A DNA stretch of 64,000 nucleotides from Rhodobacter sp. (GCA_020250445.1 JADCEF010000046.1:3426-67425); one strand, 5' to 3'. Counted from the stretch's first letter, positions 2,955-13,698 are shown. Notes: a model not told the origin generated them from the letters alone. Numbers and translations are program-made.

Positions 2955-3061
2955 GCCCGTCTCCGGAAATTGATCCCGAACCTGCCCAAGGTCCCGTCGG
3001 GAACTGGACATTGTCCCCCGGGCCATGTTTTGCATGGCCAGCCGTGAAATGGGAGGCCCGC

Positions 3062-4540
3062 ATGCTTGATGTCGTAACCGATCTGCCGTCACTTCTGAAA
3101 GACCCCACACTGCTGTCGTCGAAGGCGTTTGTCGGCGGCGAGTGGCGGGATGCCGATGACGGATCCACCTTTGCCGTGACGAACCCCGCCCGCGGCGATG
3201 TCATCTGTGCCGTGCCGAACATGAGCCGGGTCGAGACGGCCCGCGCCATCGCCGCCGCCGCTGTGGCGCAAAAGGAATGGGCGGCGCGCACCGGCAAGGA
3301 ACGCGCGCAGATCATGCGCAGGTGGTTCGACCTGATGATGGCCAACCAGGATGACCTGGCACGCATCCTGACCGCCGAAATGGGCAAACCCCTTGCCGAG
3401 GCCAGGGGCGAGATCGCCTATGGCGCGTCCTATATCGAATGGTTCGGCGAAGAGGCAAAGCGCGTCTACGGCGAAACCATCCCCGGCCATATGCGCGACA
3501 AACGCCTGACGGTGATCAGGCAGCCCGTCGGTGTGGTTGCCTCGATCACGCCCTGGAACTTTCCCAATGCGATGATCGCGCGCAAGGCCGCCCCGGCGAT
3601 TGCGGCCGGCTGTGCCTTTGTGGCCCGACCTGCCGCCGAAACGCCGCTGTCGGCGCTGGCGATGGCCGTGCTGGCTGACAGGGCCGGCCTGCCCAGGGGC
3701 ATCCTGTCGGTCATCACCTCAAAGCGCGCATCCGACATCGGCAAGGAATTCTGCGAGAATCCCGCGGTACGCAAGCTGACCTTCACCGGGTCGACCGAGG
3801 TGGGGCGGATCCTGCTGAAGCAGGCCGCAGACCAGGTGATGAAATGCTCGATGGAACTGGGCGGCAATGCCCCCTTCATCGTCTTTGACGACGCCGATCT
3901 GGATGCGGCGGTGGCGGGGGCCATGGCATCCAAGTTCCGCAACAACGGCCAGACCTGCGTCTGCGCCAACCGCATCTACGTGCAGGCCGGCGTTCATGAC
4001 GCCTTCGCGGCAAAGCTTGCGGCAGCCGTCGCCAAACTCAACGTGGGCGATGGCCTGAAGGACGGGATCGACACCGGACCGCTGGTGAACATGGATGCCG
4101 TCGACAAGGTCGAGGAACATATCGCCGACATCCTGACCAAGGGCGGCAGGATCGTGACCGGGGGCAGGCGCCATGTGCTGGGCGGGTCGTTCTTTGAACC
4201 CACGATCATCACCGGCGTGACCCAGGATATGCTGGTCAGCCGCGAAGAAACCTTTGGCCCGCTGGCCCCGCTGTACCGTTTCGAGACCGAGCAAGAGGTG
4301 ATCGCCAGGGCAAATGACACGATCTTCGGCCTTGCGTCGTATTTCTATGCCCGCGACATCGGCCGGATCACCCGCGTTCAGGAAGCGCTGGAATACGGAA
4401 TGGTGGGTGTGAATACCGGTCTGATTTCCACCGAAGTGGCCCCTTTCGGCGGCATCAAGCAATCCGGCCTTGGCCGCGAAGGCTCGCGCCACGGAATGGA
4501 CGACTACACGGAGATGAAATACATCTGCCTGGCGGTGTGA
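3062..4540 (+). CDS. gabD: NAD(P)-dependent succinate-semialdehyde dehydrogenase
   Basis: ALDH motifs ITPWNFP, FTGSTEVG, MELGGNAP, GQTCVC, EETFGP, PFGGIKQSGLGREGS; start trimmed to MLDVVTDL after GGAGG. Confidence 0.92.
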   Translation: MLDVVTDLPSLLKDPTLLSSKAFVGGEWRDADDGSTFAVTNPARGDVICAVPNMSRVETARAIAAAAVAQKEWAARTGKERAQIMRRWFDLMMANQDDLARILTAEMGKPLAEARGEIAYGASYIEWFGEEAKRVYGETIPGHMRDKRLTVIRQPVGVVASITPWNFPNAMIARKAAPAIAAGCAFVARPAAETPLSALAMAVLADRAGLPRGILSVITSKRASDIGKEFCENPAVRKLTFTGSTEVGRILLKQAADQVMKCSMELGGNAPFIVFDDADLDAAVAGAMASKFRNNGQTCVCANRIYVQAGVHDAFAAKLAAAVAKLNVGDGLKDGIDTGPLVNMDAVDKVEEHIADILTKGGRIVTGGRRHVLGGSFFEPTIITGVTQDMLVSREETFGPLAPLYRFETEQEVIARANDTIFGLASYFYARDIGRITRVQEALEYGMVGVNTGLISTEVAPFGGIKQSGLGREGSRHGMDDYTEMKYICLAV

Positions 4541-4643: not shown

Positions 4644-6089
4644 TTAGCCTGCCGCTGTCTCCTGCTGCGCTTCGGCCGACGGTTCGGGGCCGGCGGCCTG
4701 CGGCAGGCGGATCACCGTGACGCTGCAGGGCGCCTGTGCCACGACCTGGCTGGACACCGACCCCAGATAGCGGCGGGCCGTCGATGCGCCCCGCGCGCCC
4801 ATCAGGATGTGATCAACGTGATTGCGGGTGGCATGATCGATGATGGCGCTGCCCGGTTCGCTGTTCTCCAGGACCGAACAGGTCACCCGCCCCTCGCCCA
4901 GACCCAGGCCCGCCGCCCAGGCCTTGAGCGCGACCAGCCGGGACAGATGAATATTGTTCCCCTCGTCATCCAGCGCCTGATCCAGCCCGATCCGGAGCGT
5001 CTTGATCACGTTGACGCAGGCCACGCGCGCATCCGGCTGGATCACCAGCATCCGCAGCACCGATTGCCGCAGATGCCCTGCCAGCCCTTCCATCTCGGGC
5101 GAAAGATCCACTGCCACCATCAGGATCGGGGCCCTGTCGATCTGCGCCGCCAGGCTTGGCGGTGCGGCAAAGCCCGTCACACGCCGCATCCGGCGCCAGC
5201 GGCGGAACACCGTGGGAAAGGAATCCCGCACCACCTTTCTTGCCCGGTCCGTCAGCACCACCTGCGCCGGATGCTGCAGGTCAAACAGCATCTGCGCGGC
5301 AGACTGGTACCGCGCCGCAGGGTCCGCCTCAAGCGCACGCAGGATGACCTCCTGCAGCCATTCGGGGAAGGCGGGAACCAGCCCGCGCGGCGGCTCGGGG
5401 TCGCGCCACAGGCGTTGCCGCACCTGCCTAAGCCGCTGCGGCGTGCCGAAGGGTTTGCGGCCTGTCGCCAGCTCATAGGTCATGGCACCCAGCGCGAAGA
5501 TGTCGCTGCGCAGATCGTCACGCTGCCGCAGATATTGTTCGGGCGCGATGTAGGGAAAGGTGCCCATCGGGATCTGGAACTCTTCCGCCAGCAGATCGGG
5601 CAGCTCGTCATGCCGCGACAGGCCGAAGTCGATGCAGACGATCTCTCCGGTCGGGCGGCGCAGGAAATTGTCGGGCTTCAGGTCCAGATGCACGACATGC
5701 TGGCGGTGCAGGTCATGCACGGCCCGCACCATCGCCGCCGAAACCTCCACCACCTCGTCCACCGGGCGCGGCGCGGTGCCGAACAGCCCCAGCAGTGACG
5801 CACCGGCGATCCGTTCGGTCACCAGATAGGGCATCACCGCGAAATCGCCCACCGCGATCACCTGCGGCACATGCGGGCCGGTCAGGCGCGGCAGGATCAT
5901 CTGTTCCACCTCGAAGCCCACGATGGTCGGCGCGTCATAGCCATCCAGGATCGTGGGCACCTTCATGACCATCCGCAGCGCGTGATCGGGATGGGTCACA
6001 TCCCAGATGGTGGCGAAGCCGCCCCGGTGAAGGCAGGGTCCCAGCGTAAATCCGTCAATCTGCAAGCCCTGATACGGCCTGGTCTGCAT
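4644..6089 (-). CDS. Hanks-type Ser/Thr protein kinase fused to a C-terminal universal stress protein (UspA) domain
   Basis: Kinase motifs VMKVP, HLDLKPDN, DFGLS, GTFPYIAPEQ, DIFALG; USP motifs ILMVAVDLS, DHILMGARG, LGSVSSQVVAQAPCSVTVIR. Confidence 0.9.
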   Translation of the reverse strand: MQTRPYQGLQIDGFTLGPCLHRGGFATIWDVTHPDHALRMVMKVPTILDGYDAPTIVGFEVEQMILPRLTGPHVPQVIAVGDFAVMPYLVTERIAGASLLGLFGTAPRPVDEVVEVSAAMVRAVHDLHRQHVVHLDLKPDNFLRRPTGEIVCIDFGLSRHDELPDLLAEEFQIPMGTFPYIAPEQYLRQRDDLRSDIFALGAMTYELATGRKPFGTPQRLRQVRQRLWRDPEPPRGLVPAFPEWLQEVILRALEADPAARYQSAAQMLFDLQHPAQVVLTDRARKVVRDSFPTVFRRWRRMRRVTGFAAPPSLAAQIDRAPILMVAVDLSPEMEGLAGHLRQSVLRMLVIQPDARVACVNVIKTLRIGLDQALDDEGNNIHLSRLVALKAWAAGLGLGEGRVTCSVLENSEPGSAIIDHATRNHVDHILMGARGASTARRYLGSVSSQVVAQAPCSVTVIRLPQAAGPEPSAEAQQETAAG

Positions 6090-6091
6090 GG

Positions 6092-6832
6092 TCAGCTTCC
6101 CCTCAGCAATCGCAGCGCCAGCGTTTCCGGCAGGCCGGCCGCGCGCAGCTTTGACGCCGTGGCGGCACAGTCATAGGCCACCCGGCGAAAGGTCAGCACC
6201 TGCAAGGCCGTATCGAACAGGGCGTAGCCCGCCTGCGCCACCCCGTCGCGCGGCTGGCCGACCGATCCCACGACGGCCAGCCAGCGCCGCGACCGCAGCA
6301 AGGGCACCGGCTTGGCCATCGGAAGCCGGTGGCCGCGCACCGTGCCGCGGATATCGCAGGTGAACAGCGCCGGAACATGGACATGGCCGCAGAAAATCAC
6401 CTGCGCCGTGCTGACGCGAAAGCTGGGCATCGCAGAGCGTTCCGAGGTGACATAGATCCACCCGGACGGGTCATTGGCGCTGGCATGGACGAAAAGCACA
6501 TCGTCCAGCATCACCGTCACCGGCAGTGCTGCCAGAAACGCCGCCTGCCCCGCCGTCAGCTGCGGGCGTGTCCAGTCGATTGCGGCCCTTGCGATGGCTG
6601 TCATGCTTTGCGACGGCGTGGCGATGGCGCTGTCATGGTTTCCCTTCACGCATAGCGCGCCCTGAGCGACCAGATCCATCACCCTGTCGACGCACCACCC
6701 CGGGTCGGGGCCATAGCCCACGATATCGCCCAGCACCGCAATCCGGTCCACCTGCCGGGCGGCAAGGTCGGCCAGCACCGCCGCCAAGGCCTCGCGGTTG
6801 CCATGGATATCGGTCAGCAAGGCAATGCGCAT
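6092..6832 (-). CDS. Calcineurin-like metallophosphoesterase (PPP-like)
   Basis: DIHGN, GDIVGYG, GNHD, CGHVH, GSVGQPRDG motifs; start trimmed to MRIALLTD; stop 2 nt before the kinase ATG. Confidence 0.9.
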   Translation of the reverse strand: MRIALLTDIHGNREALAAVLADLAARQVDRIAVLGDIVGYGPDPGWCVDRVMDLVAQGALCVKGNHDSAIATPSQSMTAIARAAIDWTRPQLTAGQAAFLAALPVTVMLDDVLFVHASANDPSGWIYVTSERSAMPSFRVSTAQVIFCGHVHVPALFTCDIRGTVRGHRLPMAKPVPLLRSRRWLAVVGSVGQPRDGVAQAGYALFDTALQVLTFRRVAYDCAATASKLRAAGLPETLALRLLRGS

Positions 6833-6973
6833 GGCTGGGTATCCCACGGGCGTACACCCCACGCTAACGCGGCAGCGATTTGCCGCGCCATGCGCTGGAT
6901 CAAGTGCGAACGTTGCGCCCAGGCCCTGTTTGGGCTACATCCGCTGTTCATCATACCGGCGCAAGGGCCCCCT

Positions 6974-8248
6974 GTGATAGCCGAAATCCTGATCGTCGCT
7001 GCCCTGATCCTGCTCAACGGGGCGCTGGCCATGTCGGAACTTGCGGTCGTCTCGGCCCGCCCGGCCCGGCTGAAGATAATGGCGGACAGCGGCAGCAGCG
7101 GTGCAGCGGCAGCCTTGCGTCTGGCGCAGGATCCGGGGCGCTTTCTGTCTGCGGTTCAGATCGGCATCACCCTGGTCGGCGTGCTGTCCGGGGCATTCTC
7201 GGGTGCCACGCTGGGGGCGCGCCTGTCGGGCTGGCTGTCGGCCCAGGGGCTGGACGCCCGGTGGTCCTACTTGCTGGGCGTGGGGACTGTCGTGGTTCTG
7301 CTGACCTACCTGTCGCTGATCGTGGGCGAGCTGGTACCCAAGCAGATCGCGCTGAAGAACCCCGAAGGCGTCGCAGCGCGCGTTGCCCCGGCGATGACCC
7401 TGATGTCGCGCGTCTCTGCCCCGCTTGTGTGGCTGCTGCACAGTTCGGGCAAGCTGGTGCTGGCGCTGCTGGGACAGTCGGCCGAGGCGCAAAACCGCGT
7501 CACCGATGAAGAGGTGCGCACCCTTCTGGCCGAGGCGCATGAAGGCGGCATCATCGAAACCGAAGAGCAGGAAATGCTGTCGGGCGTCATGCGCCTGGCC
7601 GACCGGTCGGCCCGCGCCCTGATGACCCCGCGCCGCGATGTGGAACTGCTGGATCTCGATGCGGCACCCGAAGACACGCTGGAGGCGATCCGCCGCATCG
7701 CGCGCCCACGCATTCCCGTGCGCAACCCCGACAATGACGAGGTGCTGGGTGTTCTTTACCTGACCGATGCCTTCGCGGCGCTGTCGCGGGGCGAGCCGCT
7801 GGATCTGGCGGCCCTGATGCGCGAGGTGCCCGTGGTGTCGGACCGCGCCGATGCGCTGGATGTGATCGAAATCCTGCGTGCCTCGCCCAATCACATGGCG
7901 CTGGTCTATGATGAATATGGTGCCTTCGAAGGCATCATCACCACCGGCGATATCCTCGAGGCGATCACCGGCACCTTCAAGGAAAGCCTGGCCGAGGAAC
8001 CCGCCCTGCTGCAGCGCGAAGACGGCAGCTATCTGGTGTCGGGCTGGATGCCGGTCGATGAATTCTGCGACAGGCTGTCCTTTCCGCGTGCCCTGGCGGG
8101 AGATTACGAAACCGTCGCGGGCCTGGTCATCAACCACCTGCGCCGCCTGCCCGCCCTGGGCGATGCCTTTACCCTGAACGGCTGGCGGTTCGAGGTGATT
8201 GACCTTGACGACCGGCGCATCGACAAGCTGCTGGTCGCACGGGTCTAA
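6974..8248 (+). CDS. Hemolysin-family HlyC/CorC transporter (DUF21-CBS-CBS-CorC)
   Basis: NGALAMSELAVVS, FLSAVQIGITL, GELVPK, LMTPR, VYDEYG, GDYETVAG, DDRRIDK; GTG start inferred. Confidence 0.9.
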   Translation: MIAEILIVAALILLNGALAMSELAVVSARPARLKIMADSGSSGAAAALRLAQDPGRFLSAVQIGITLVGVLSGAFSGATLGARLSGWLSAQGLDARWSYLLGVGTVVVLLTYLSLIVGELVPKQIALKNPEGVAARVAPAMTLMSRVSAPLVWLLHSSGKLVLALLGQSAEAQNRVTDEEVRTLLAEAHEGGIIETEEQEMLSGVMRLADRSARALMTPRRDVELLDLDAAPEDTLEAIRRIARPRIPVRNPDNDEVLGVLYLTDAFAALSRGEPLDLAALMREVPVVSDRADALDVIEILRASPNHMALVYDEYGAFEGIITTGDILEAITGTFKESLAEEPALLQREDGSYLVSGWMPVDEFCDRLSFPRALAGDYETVAGLVINHLRRLPALGDAFTLNGWRFEVIDLDDRRIDKLLVARV

Positions 8249-8644: not shown

Positions 8645-12924
<4,280 letters not shown>

Positions 12925-13635
12925 TCAGGCGCTTGCCGCAACCCTGCGCTGAGATTGCAGACCGGGTTCCCGAAGGACATAGCCGCGCCCCCATACCGTC
13001 TCAATATGGTTATGGCCGCCGGTCGCCTCAGCCAGCTTCTTGCGCAATTTGCAGATGAAGACATCGATGATCTTCAATTCCGGTTCATCCATGCCGCCGT
13101 AAAGATGGTTCAGGAACATTTCCTTGGTCAGCGTTGTCCCCTTGCGCAGCGACAACAGTTCCAACATCTGGTATTCCTTGCCCGTCAGATGAACAAGCTC
13201 GCCGTTCACGTCCACCGTCTTCGCGTCCAGATTGACATTGATCTGTCCGGTCCGGATGATGGATTGGGCGTGGCCCTTGGACCGCCGGATGATGGCATGG
13301 ATGCGCGCGACCAGCTCTTCCCGATGGAAGGGCTTTGTCATGTAATCGTCGGCACCGAACCCAAAACCCTTGAGTTTGCTTTCGGAATCATCCGATCCGG
13401 ACAGGATCAGGATGGGCGTTTCCACACGCGCCAGGCGCAACTGGCGCAGAACCTCGTGGCCGTTCATATCGGGCAGGTTGAGATCCAGAAGGATAAGATC
13501 ATAATCGTACAATTTCGCCAGATCGATGCCTTCTTCGCCAAGGTCCGTGCAGTAAACGTTCAGATTGGCATGCGTCAGCATCAGCTCGATGCTGCGCGAC
13601 GTCGCCGGATCATCTTCCACAAGCAGTACCCGCAT
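12925..13635 (-). CDS. ctrA: Cell-cycle response regulator CtrA
   Basis: MRVLLVEDD...[15 protein letters not shown]...[18 protein letters not shown]...[20 protein letters not shown]...IETVWGRGY. Confidence 0.97.
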
Positions 13636-13678
13636 TCCAAAGCTCCACGTAGGTTGTCTTTTAATGATCCTGACGGCC

Positions 13679-13698
13679 AATGGTTAATCGGACGTTAC
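13679..13698. promoter_or_regulatory. CtrA-binding site in the ctrA promoter
   Basis: TTAA-TCGGACG-TTAC at 13684-13698 (near TTAA-N7-TTAA) and TTAACCAT half-site on the minus strand at 13680-13687. Confidence 0.6.

Follow-up and report, generated by a model that had tools for sequence, protein, structure and literature searches.

A conserved gene pair in Rhodobacter sp. joins a calcineurin-fold metallophosphoesterase to a non-RD Ser/Thr kinase fused to a universal stress protein domain

A stretch of 64,000 nucleotides (nt) from Rhodobacter sp. (GCA_020250445.1 JADCEF010000046.1:3426-67425), referred to here as the window, carries at positions 4644-6832 (minus strand) two adjoining open reading frames (ORFs): a metallophosphoesterase (MPE) gene on the 5' side and, on the 3' side, a gene encoding a serine/threonine kinase fused to a universal stress protein (USP) domain. 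Because these genes stay together in almost every relative examined, comparison of sequences indicates that they very likely work as one signalling unit. The MPE gene (6092-6832, minus strand) extends from an ATG at 6832 to a TGA stop at 6094-6092 and encodes 246 amino acids (aa). An alternative GTG start at 6862 would add 10 residues; the ATG is the likely start since nearly all orthologues are 245-247 aa long with the N-terminus MRxA. The kinase-USP gene (4644-6089, minus strand) runs from an ATG at 6089 to a stop at 4646-4644 and encodes 481 aa. Exactly 2 nt (6090-6091, minus strand; tga-cc-atg) separate the MPE stop from the kinase ATG, a spacing that is consistent with an operon and with translational coupling. 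An earlier sequence-only reading of this DNA had proposed the same two-gene layout, 2-nt spacing and C-terminal position of the UspA domain, all of which were borne out by the ORFs and by Pfam.

The main evidence for a functional unit is the near-obligate pairing of the two genes. A pattern scan based on a 9-sequence alignment, in which each GTDB species was represented by a single genome, yielded 80 loci, which belong to Alphaproteobacteria (Rhodobacterales, Hyphomicrobiales, Rhodospirillales, Acetobacterales), Betaproteobacteria (many of them Burkholderiales), Gammaproteobacteria (Pseudoxanthomonas) and Acidobacteriota. An MPE gene lies directly upstream of the kinase-USP gene and on the same strand in 78 of these 80 genome loci, as determined by tblastn. 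The two loci without an upstream match differ in kind, one (L053) having no upstream DNA and the other (L065) being a true exception, with no substitute hydrolase near its kinase-USP gene. An apparent loss of the MPE in Noviherbaspirillum denitrificans (L007, one of the 78) was rejected, as a run of Ns at ~5800-5830 in the assembly renders the match partial. Metagenomes were scanned using the most distant full-length kinase-USP representatives as queries, which are 33-40% identical to the window protein, and a locus was considered informative if its upstream DNA spanned 800 nt or more. The MPE was directly upstream in all 66 informative metagenome loci of these most distant kinase-USP clades, and the pairing persists to ~35% kinase identity. 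The sequence-only reading had proposed a test of gene-pair conservation and would have given up its interpretation had the genes not been conserved together; the 78 genome and 66 metagenome loci show that they are. Between the MPE stop and the kinase start the median distance is 3 nt, with 10 nt or less in 57 of 77 loci and an overlap in 12 of 77 (start codons being assigned heuristically). The module thus displays the adjacency and co-orientation, conserved across lineages, by which operons of a kinase and its cognate phosphatase are recognised.

Further evidence comes from duplication and from the joint divergence of the two genes. Two metagenome contigs, L113 (1204-6383) and L120 (1043-5485), each contain two complete MPE and kinase-USP pairs arranged head to head. 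The module was duplicated there as a unit, and each kinase keeps its own MPE, which suggests partner specificity. In a small neighbour-joining (NJ) tree the kinase-linked MPEs form one clade, which includes a divergent copy on a Bosea plasmid whose kinase-USP partner lies across the origin of the record. Sequence distances of the kinase and the MPE correlate across loci (r ~0.75), indicating that the two diverge together. A third conserved partner or substrate gene was sought by ORF clustering of the 80 loci and rejected, as no such gene was common to more than 11 of them and the genes that are shared reflect lineage synteny.

We also considered a natural fusion of the two proteins, P0262 (608 aa), in which an N-terminal MPE half runs in frame into a complete kinase-USP. 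Its MPE half contains motifs I-IV only, reads GNHG in place of GNHD and lacks the GHxH half, so that a deletion or decayed MPE, a frameshift, or an assembly or gene-calling artefact is more likely than a true fusion; being also a single case, it was not used as evidence.

The kinase domain (5262-6062, minus strand; ~residues 10-276) matches the Pkinase profile (PF00069) at residues 22-266 (E 7e-24; 85.1 bits against a cut-off of 31.7). It is PknB-like both by sequence (phmmer E ~3e-26) and by fold (target template modelling (TM) score 0.85, E 1e-17, in a Foldseek search with the AlphaFold model, which for the kinase-USP protein has a pLDDT of 80 and a pTM of 0.62), and profile and fold thus agree on the bilobal fold of Hanks-type Ser/Thr kinases. 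Its motifs comprise VMKVP with K43 (codon 5961-5963), E62, the catalytic loop HLDLKPDN with H134-L135-D136 (D136 at codon 5682-5684), K138 and N141, DFG with D154 (codon 5628-5630), an acidic activation segment LPDLLAEEF at residues 163-171, T177 and APE at residues 182-184. The residues K43, E62, D136, K138, D154, G156, T177, P183-E184 and R260 are invariant in all 80 genome relatives and N141 is kept in 72 of them. This conservation reaches down to relatives with 33% identity, the catalytic residues being intact and under strong purifying selection. In its DLKPxN loop, GT motif, APE and R260 the domain follows the pattern of protein Ser/Thr kinases. No transmembrane-like segment was found in the kinase-USP protein (Kyte-Doolittle 19-residue mean, maximum 1.29), in line with the claim of the sequence-only reading that the protein is not membrane-bound. 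Judged by its sequence, the protein looks like a catalytically intact, soluble, Hanks-type Ser/Thr kinase.

Two features of the kinase, neither of which was mentioned in the sequence-only reading, set it apart from the canonical pattern. The catalytic loop reads HLD rather than HRD, with residue 135 being Leu in 71, His in 7 and Phe in 2 of the 80 relatives and never Arg. The kinase is thus of the non-RD type, since no Arg precedes the catalytic Asp in any relative. The acidic activation signature LPDLL(A/D)EE is invariant, with P164 and D165 present in 80 of 80 relatives, and no Ser or Thr is conserved from DFG to GT, including in relatives at 33-40% identity, so that both marks of the RD subclass, an Arg before the catalytic Asp and a phosphorylatable activation loop, are absent. 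The distinction between RD and non-RD kinases bears on control by activation-loop phosphorylation, and such control is unlikely here because the kinase combines non-RD character with an acidic loop that has no conserved Ser or Thr. The other feature is the glycine loop HRGGFAT (H21-R-G23-G-F-A26), which is only partly canonical in that the first Gly is replaced by His and the third by Ala. Among the 80 relatives the central Gly is present in all, His occupies the first position in 75 and Ala the third in 76. The glycine loop of PknB (GFGGMS) also lacks the third Gly, and the incomplete loop therefore leaves kinase activity possible.

A linker (5133-5261, minus strand; ~residues 277-319) connects the kinase to the USP domain. 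A basic helix within it, TVFRRWRRMRR (modelled at residues 291-302), is conserved, with R297 kept in 77 of 80 relatives, and is followed by a low-confidence stretch with pLDDT below 50 at residues 308-317. The USP domain (4704-5132, minus strand; ~residues 320-462) matches Usp (PF00582) at residues 323-461, covering profile positions 5-141 of 141 (E 1.2e-15; 58.7 bits against a cut-off of 24), and its best solved relatives are the ATP-type USPs 1WJG, 3LOQ, 3S3T and TeaD. It resembles the ATP-binding USPs MJ0577, 1WJG of T. thermophilus and Rv1636 of M. tuberculosis in being a full-length Usp with VAVD (here D328) and a motif of the G-x2-G…G-S-V-S type. Unlike in those proteins, the phosphate loop, G431-A-R-G434-x8-G443-S444-V-S446, is one residue short of the canonical G-2x-G-9x-G(S/T), which appears as a one-residue gap in the alignment to 1WJG, and conservation of its second Gly is poor. 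Of the 80 relatives, 78 have G431, only 34 the second Gly (G434), 80 G443, 75 S444 and 71 D328; S446 is almost invariant, and at S436, in the same loop, 70 of 80 close relatives have Ser or Thr. Nucleotide binding by the USP domain is consequently plausible but not secure, and a nucleotide-sensing role appears uncertain given the short phosphate loop and the variable second Gly.

The upstream partner matches Metallophos_2 (PF12850; E 1.3e-16, 61.4 bits against a cut-off of 27) and Metallophos (PF00149; E 3e-14), and contains the motifs DIH (D8, H10), GD (D36), GNHD (65-67) and GHVH (150-152). The metal ligands D8, H10, D36, N65, H66, H116, H150 and H152 are kept in 73 of 73 relatives, and the profile together with the six metal-ligand motifs places the protein in the calcineurin-like metallophosphoesterase superfamily. 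All kinase and MPE motifs quoted in the sequence-only reading are present, and their conservation among relatives lies well above what chance would give. Both enzymes look catalytically intact, as that reading had stated. The MPE, whose AlphaFold model has a pLDDT of 95.9, carries an inserted helical segment behind GNHD and, at its C-terminus, a helical hairpin (…AAGLPETL…). No transmembrane-like segment was found in the MPE, the Kyte-Doolittle maximum of 1.97 corresponding to beta strands in the structure model.

The nearest structure to the MPE is 3RQZ (E 2e-40 with the single sequence and 3.5e-55 with the family profile, over residues 1-245). Fold matches show the same order, with TM scores of 0.88 for 3RQZ, 0.81 for Pyrococcus 1NNW/2GJU and 0.73 for SapH. 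The subfamily consisting of 3RQZ (Sphaerobacter thermophilus, structural genomics), 1NNW, 2GJU and SapH/Spr1479 (S. pneumoniae, 3QFM) shares with the window MPE the motifs GDxVGYGP, GNHD, GHxH and VGQPRDG as well as the C-terminal AGLPE helices. Full-length sequence, fold, insertion and AGLPE hairpin all assign the MPE to the 3RQZ/PF1291/SapH clade, and sequence and model together predict a binuclear-metal enzyme of that clade. No function is assigned to 3RQZ, 1NNW or 2GJU; the sole named activity in the clade is that of SapH, which according to its PDB title is an asymmetric diadenosine tetraphosphate (Ap4A) hydrolase/phosphodiesterase. In a PDB search, the MPE family profile picks up Ap4A hydrolases along with YfcE, SbcD and the phosphatase domain of Pnkp.

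Relatives of the MPE outside the kinase-linked loci offer a second view of its partners. A search with the 3RQZ sequence, from which five relatives were looked up, gave nine loci, and in all nine the MPE gene is followed by a stand-alone USP gene (145-167 aa) where the window MPE gene is followed by kinase-USP. Two TrkA_N (RCK) genes come after the USP gene and no kinase is nearby. Names among the matches point to Thermomicrobiales as the source of these loci (L081-L089; L081 at 5001-7441), and because all nine share one synteny block, SecA–GidA–MPE–USP–TrkA–TrkA–GDH–GatB, they amount to a single evolutionary observation. A 4-nt overlap of the MPE gene with the USP gene occurs in L087 and L088, which represent one lineage. 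The Thermomicrobiales MPE is 39-41% identical to the window MPE, its clade is not sister to the kinase-linked clade in the small NJ tree, and the stand-alone USP lacks the glycine motif. The MPE and USP may here be a unit tied to potassium-transport regulation. A general association of MPE with USP was considered and rejected: among 16 plasmid-borne MPE regions inspected, 3 are orthologous MPE and kinase-USP pairs whereas the other 13 have no USP neighbour and lie in diverse contexts, which limits the association to the kinase-linked and Thermomicrobiales clades. MPE and USP are thus linked in two settings, with the USP part of a kinase fusion in one and free in the other, which we regard as a hint and not as a rule.

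We tentatively favour the explanation that the two genes are transcribed together and coupled in translation as a single signalling operon, and that their products act jointly, the kinase-USP as a USP-gated non-RD kinase and the MPE as its dedicated antagonist, that is, as writer and eraser. The kinase would be competent and soluble and would probably not be switched by phosphorylation of its activation loop. Instead, it would probably be gated by its own C-terminal USP, either via nucleotide binding or via USP-mediated dimerisation. The MPE would remove the phosphates put on protein by the kinase, whether on other substrates or on kinase-USP itself, and a member of the 3RQZ/SapH clade would thereby fill the place that is usual for a PP2C phosphatase. 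Kinase activity, the direction of regulation, the substrate of the MPE and the ligand of the USP are the parts of this scheme that we infer. It is favoured because of the precedent of kinase-phosphatase operons and because of the partner-specific duplication described above. Bacterial Hanks kinases are commonly encoded beside a cognate phosphatase, as in PknB-PstP and PrkC-PrpC, and protein-phosphatase activity can occur among MPE-fold relatives of ApaH and PrpE. A role of the MPE as cognate protein phosphatase is accordingly plausible as one of two live mechanisms.

The resemblance to established systems extends to gene order. As in PknB-PstP of M. tuberculosis, PrkC-PrpC of B. subtilis and Stk1-Stp1 of S. 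aureus, a PknB-like kinase stands beside a co-oriented, metal-dependent phosphohydrolase, and the adjacency is conserved across lineages. The differences are nevertheless considerable. The partner here is a calcineurin-fold MPE and not a PP2C/PPM enzyme, while the kinase is soluble, without a transmembrane segment or PASTA domains, and is a non-RD enzyme that lacks an activation-loop Thr and carries a USP domain.

Several observations weigh against the MPE being an eraser of protein phosphorylation. In the wider family the activation loop, the linker and the USP all lack a conserved Ser or Thr, which leaves no obvious autophosphorylation site for the MPE to erase, and with a non-RD kinase lacking a conserved loop phospho-acceptor, resetting the kinase is not an obvious task for the MPE either. 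A PP2C or other hydrolase replacing the MPE was seen in none of the 146 informative loci; a lineage with a PP2C in its place would have spoken for equivalent functions. The distance-correlation test singled out neither domain of the kinase-USP protein as the co-evolving partner of the MPE: mirror-tree partial r with the MPE is 0.42 for the kinase domain and 0.29 for the USP, which evolves faster and is noisier. The one MPE relative with a named activity, SapH, is an Ap4A hydrolase and phosphodiesterase, and in Thermomicrobiales the 3RQZ-type MPE is translationally coupled to a stand-alone USP with no kinase nearby, which points to the USP rather than the kinase as the partner. The MPE has the superfamily fold and the six metal-binding residues of the PPP phosphatases (lambda phosphatase, E. 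coli PrpA/PrpB, PP1/PP2A) and a similar spacing of the first three motifs, but it lacks their phosphate-binding Arg, the PPP signature GDxVDRG being GDIVGYG in the MPE. The MPE family profile found no PPP phosphatase chain in the PDB at E<=0.1, and PP1, PP2A, calcineurin and lambda phosphatase reach TM scores of only ~0.5 (0.48-0.56), compared with the much closer 3RQZ. Motif, profile and fold thus rule out a PPP-family protein phosphatase. The sequence-only reading had interpreted the locus as a cytoplasmic, nucleotide- or energy-sensing kinase/phosphatase switch with a PPP-like phosphoesterase; of this, the soluble, conserved two-gene module stands and the PPP-like label does not.

The main alternative, possible but doubtful, is that the MPE is not a protein phosphatase at all but a nucleotide hydrolase acting on the ligand of the USP, be it USP-bound ATP, Ap4A or a cyclic nucleotide. 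The USP would then be a resettable switch that gates the kinase, with MPE and USP forming the ancestral unit to which a kinase output was added in Proteobacteria and Acidobacteriota. This would agree with the nearest relatives of named activity, which are SapH, the Trypanosoma Ap4A hydrolase 2QJC and YfcE, with the distance of the MPE from PPP phosphatases in both fold and profile, and with the lack of any sign that the kinase needs a phosphatase to reset its activation loop. The window USP retains most of the ATP-type motif (D328, G431, G443-S444-V-S446), although the loop is short by one residue and the second Gly is mostly missing among relatives. Binding of nucleotides by USPs has precedents, in that Rv1636 binds cyclic AMP, and the ATP-binding USP MJ0577 reportedly hydrolyses ATP only after addition of a soluble factor from extract. 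The kinase-free MPE-USP pair of Thermomicrobiales, found in nine loci from five look-ups, also fits the alternative raised in the sequence-only reading itself, namely that the phosphoesterase acts on small nucleotides. Against this, these loci are one observation, their USP is without the glycine motif and their MPE clade is not sister to the kinase-linked one, while distant MPE homologues occur without a USP in unrelated contexts (ars, zinc-paralogue, polysaccharide and haloarchaeal). Moreover, duplicated pairs keep their own MPEs, which would not obviously be needed for hydrolysis of a freely diffusing small molecule. A more specific and rather unlikely variant makes the MPE a 'GAP-like' partner of the USP, one that turns over the USP-held nucleotide or strips from the USP a modification derived from a nucleotide and so provides a timed switch wired to the kinase. 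In that variant MPE and USP would be an old two-part switch, standing alone beside TrkA-type genes in Thermomicrobiales, and a constitutively 'on-ready' non-RD kinase would be its output in Proteobacteria and Acidobacteriota.

Other explanations appear less attractive. The USP itself, or in Thermomicrobiales the stand-alone USP, might be the covalently modified substrate, either of the fused kinase or through self-phosphorylation or self-adenylylation, with the MPE removing the modification in a self-contained cycle that has no separate substrate. In E. coli, UspA is phosphorylated on Ser/Thr, and UspG undergoes both autophosphorylation and autoadenylylation in vitro. UspA phosphorylation is cited in PMC1262709. 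Such a cycle would reconcile the kinase-MPE pairing with the MPE-USP pairing of Thermomicrobiales and would suit both the lack of a third conserved gene that might be a substrate and the Ser or Thr at position 436 in most close relatives. Yet the wider family conserves no Ser or Thr in the USP, a residue equivalent to that in the loop is missing from the Thermomicrobiales USP, and the proposal is purely inferential, so that we consider it improbable. It is very unlikely that the two genes are co-expressed yet functionally independent, with the MPE as a general housekeeping phosphodiesterase sharing a promoter; in its favour, the MPE family is functionally diverse and occurs in many unrelated contexts, but near-obligate adjacency across phyla with few-nt spacing, the single clade formed by the kinase-linked MPEs and the joint duplication of the two genes all argue against it. 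It is extremely unlikely that the pair serves in anti-phage defence as a system of the PD-T4-6 or Stk2 type, centred on a Ser/Thr kinase and with the MPE for a partner or effector. The kinase domain matches the PADLOC models of PD-T4-6, with E down to 1.3e-47, and also mad6 and PglW; these matches, however, span only the generic kinase domain at a level similar to that of the match to PknB, and the MPE matches no PADLOC model. The neighbouring genes in the window are of the housekeeping type (gabD, CNNM transporter, recG, ligA), with lineage-specific housekeeping synteny elsewhere, and the correlated distances of kinase and MPE likewise speak against a defence role. Membership in kinase-based defence was therefore rejected, there being only generic kinase-domain matches and no defence-type neighbours.

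The proteins themselves are not new. RefSeq names the orthologues 'metallophosphoesterase family protein' and, following it, 'bifunctional serine/threonine-protein kinase/universal stress protein'. Kinase and USP were recorded as fused in Mesorhizobium and Bradyrhizobium in 2005 (PMC1262709), and in 2010 the combination was described as typical of Proteobacteria (PMC2877116); the passages on the fusion in these two papers do not mention a phosphoesterase partner. The attachment of a USP to a signalling kinase recurs elsewhere, as in KdpD (PMC11018627) and in the Arabidopsis USP-kinases cited in passages of PMC1262709. KdpD differs in being a histidine kinase, whereas the window USP is C-terminal to a Hanks kinase that has an obligate MPE partner. 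In the plant USP-kinases the USP domain is N-terminal. The sequence-only reading knew of no functional characterisation of the module, and the searchable literature likewise yielded neither a functional study of the pair nor a relevant study of SapH. What is new here is that the MPE is a near-obligate partner, that the kinase is of the non-RD type and that MPE and USP are linked in Thermomicrobiales.

The module bears on wider questions of bacterial signalling. The USP is among the commonest stress-related domains in bacteria while its mode of signalling is poorly understood, and for most bacterial Hanks kinases, those of Firmicutes and Actinobacteria aside, neither an input nor a partner is known. 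The link between USP, kinase and phosphohydrolase is directly testable because the module is compact, consisting of two genes for soluble proteins with no further conserved component, and because its carriers include cultivable bacteria (Rhodobacter, Bradyrhizobium, Azospirillum, Rubrivivax, Roseateles, Shinella). If the MPE is the phosphatase of the kinase, the antagonists of bacterial kinases would no longer be confined to PP2C; should the USP ligand be its target instead, it would show how a USP is reset. The 'GAP-like' reading of the MPE, if true, would supply a long-missing mechanism for signalling by ATP-type USPs.

Within the window, the pair is flanked on its 3' side by a convergent succinate-semialdehyde-dehydrogenase-like gene (gabD; 3011-4540, plus strand) and on the MPE side by a divergent gene for a CNNM/TlyC-type (CBS-domain) transporter on the plus strand, beyond which lie recG, ligA and ctrA-like genes. 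The CNNM/TlyC-type neighbour is not conserved beside the module in other lineages. As a mechanical ORF, 6803-8248 (plus strand), the transporter gene would overlap the start of the MPE gene; its true start probably lies near 6960, at a GTG before VIAEILIVAALILLNG, and the transporter gene and the kinase operon would then probably have a regulatory region of ~130 nt in common. The non-coding region upstream of the MPE gene that is shared with the transporter gene (6833-6980, minus strand) contains one sigma-70-like hexamer pair at 6978-6950, ATCACA-17-TATGAT, found in a consensus scan (1 site against a shuffle mean of 0.3), which is a weak but possible candidate for the operon promoter. The nearest database relatives of both proteins are from Rhodobacter/Paracoccaceae freshwater genomes. 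Lake metatranscriptome contigs with 93-99% identity, short and of low depth, cover parts of both genes; none of them crosses the MPE/kinase junction, and DNA carry-over is a possible source of these contigs.

Distant MPE homologues were also observed in settings of other kinds. Several with 25-31% identity (L098, L104 and plasmid matches H28, H40, H49 and H55) lie inside arsenic-resistance operons with arsR, arsM, arsC, ACR3 and arsA in Rubrobacter, Deinococcus, Flammeovirga, Mucilaginibacter and Pedobacter. On haloarchaeal plasmids (L091, L101, L103) MPE homologues cluster with other phosphatases: in Halomicrobium a PP2C, a SIMPL-domain protein and three MPEs occur together, in Haloplanus a SIMPL protein, a dual-specificity phosphatase and an MPE, and in Halorubrum a DHH phosphoesterase and an MPE, such that these clusters look like multi-phosphatase islands. 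The homologues on two cyanobacterial plasmids (L093, L099) adjoin genes annotated as GTP-binding protein, a second metallophosphatase, folE-II and hemB-II, a gene set that we take to resemble zinc-starvation paralogue clusters, and in Azospirillum a distant homologue lies in a polysaccharide locus.

Farther along the window, at 12925-14073 (minus strand), an ORF for a CtrA-like response regulator (12925-13680) is directly followed by a small ORF (13684-14073), with recG and ligA at 8645-12849 just upstream of the CtrA-like ORF. From translations read by eye, from which both the CtrA and the SciP labels derive, our guess is that the small ORF is SciP/DUF1153-like and forms with the CtrA-like ORF an alphaproteobacterial cell-cycle regulator pair.

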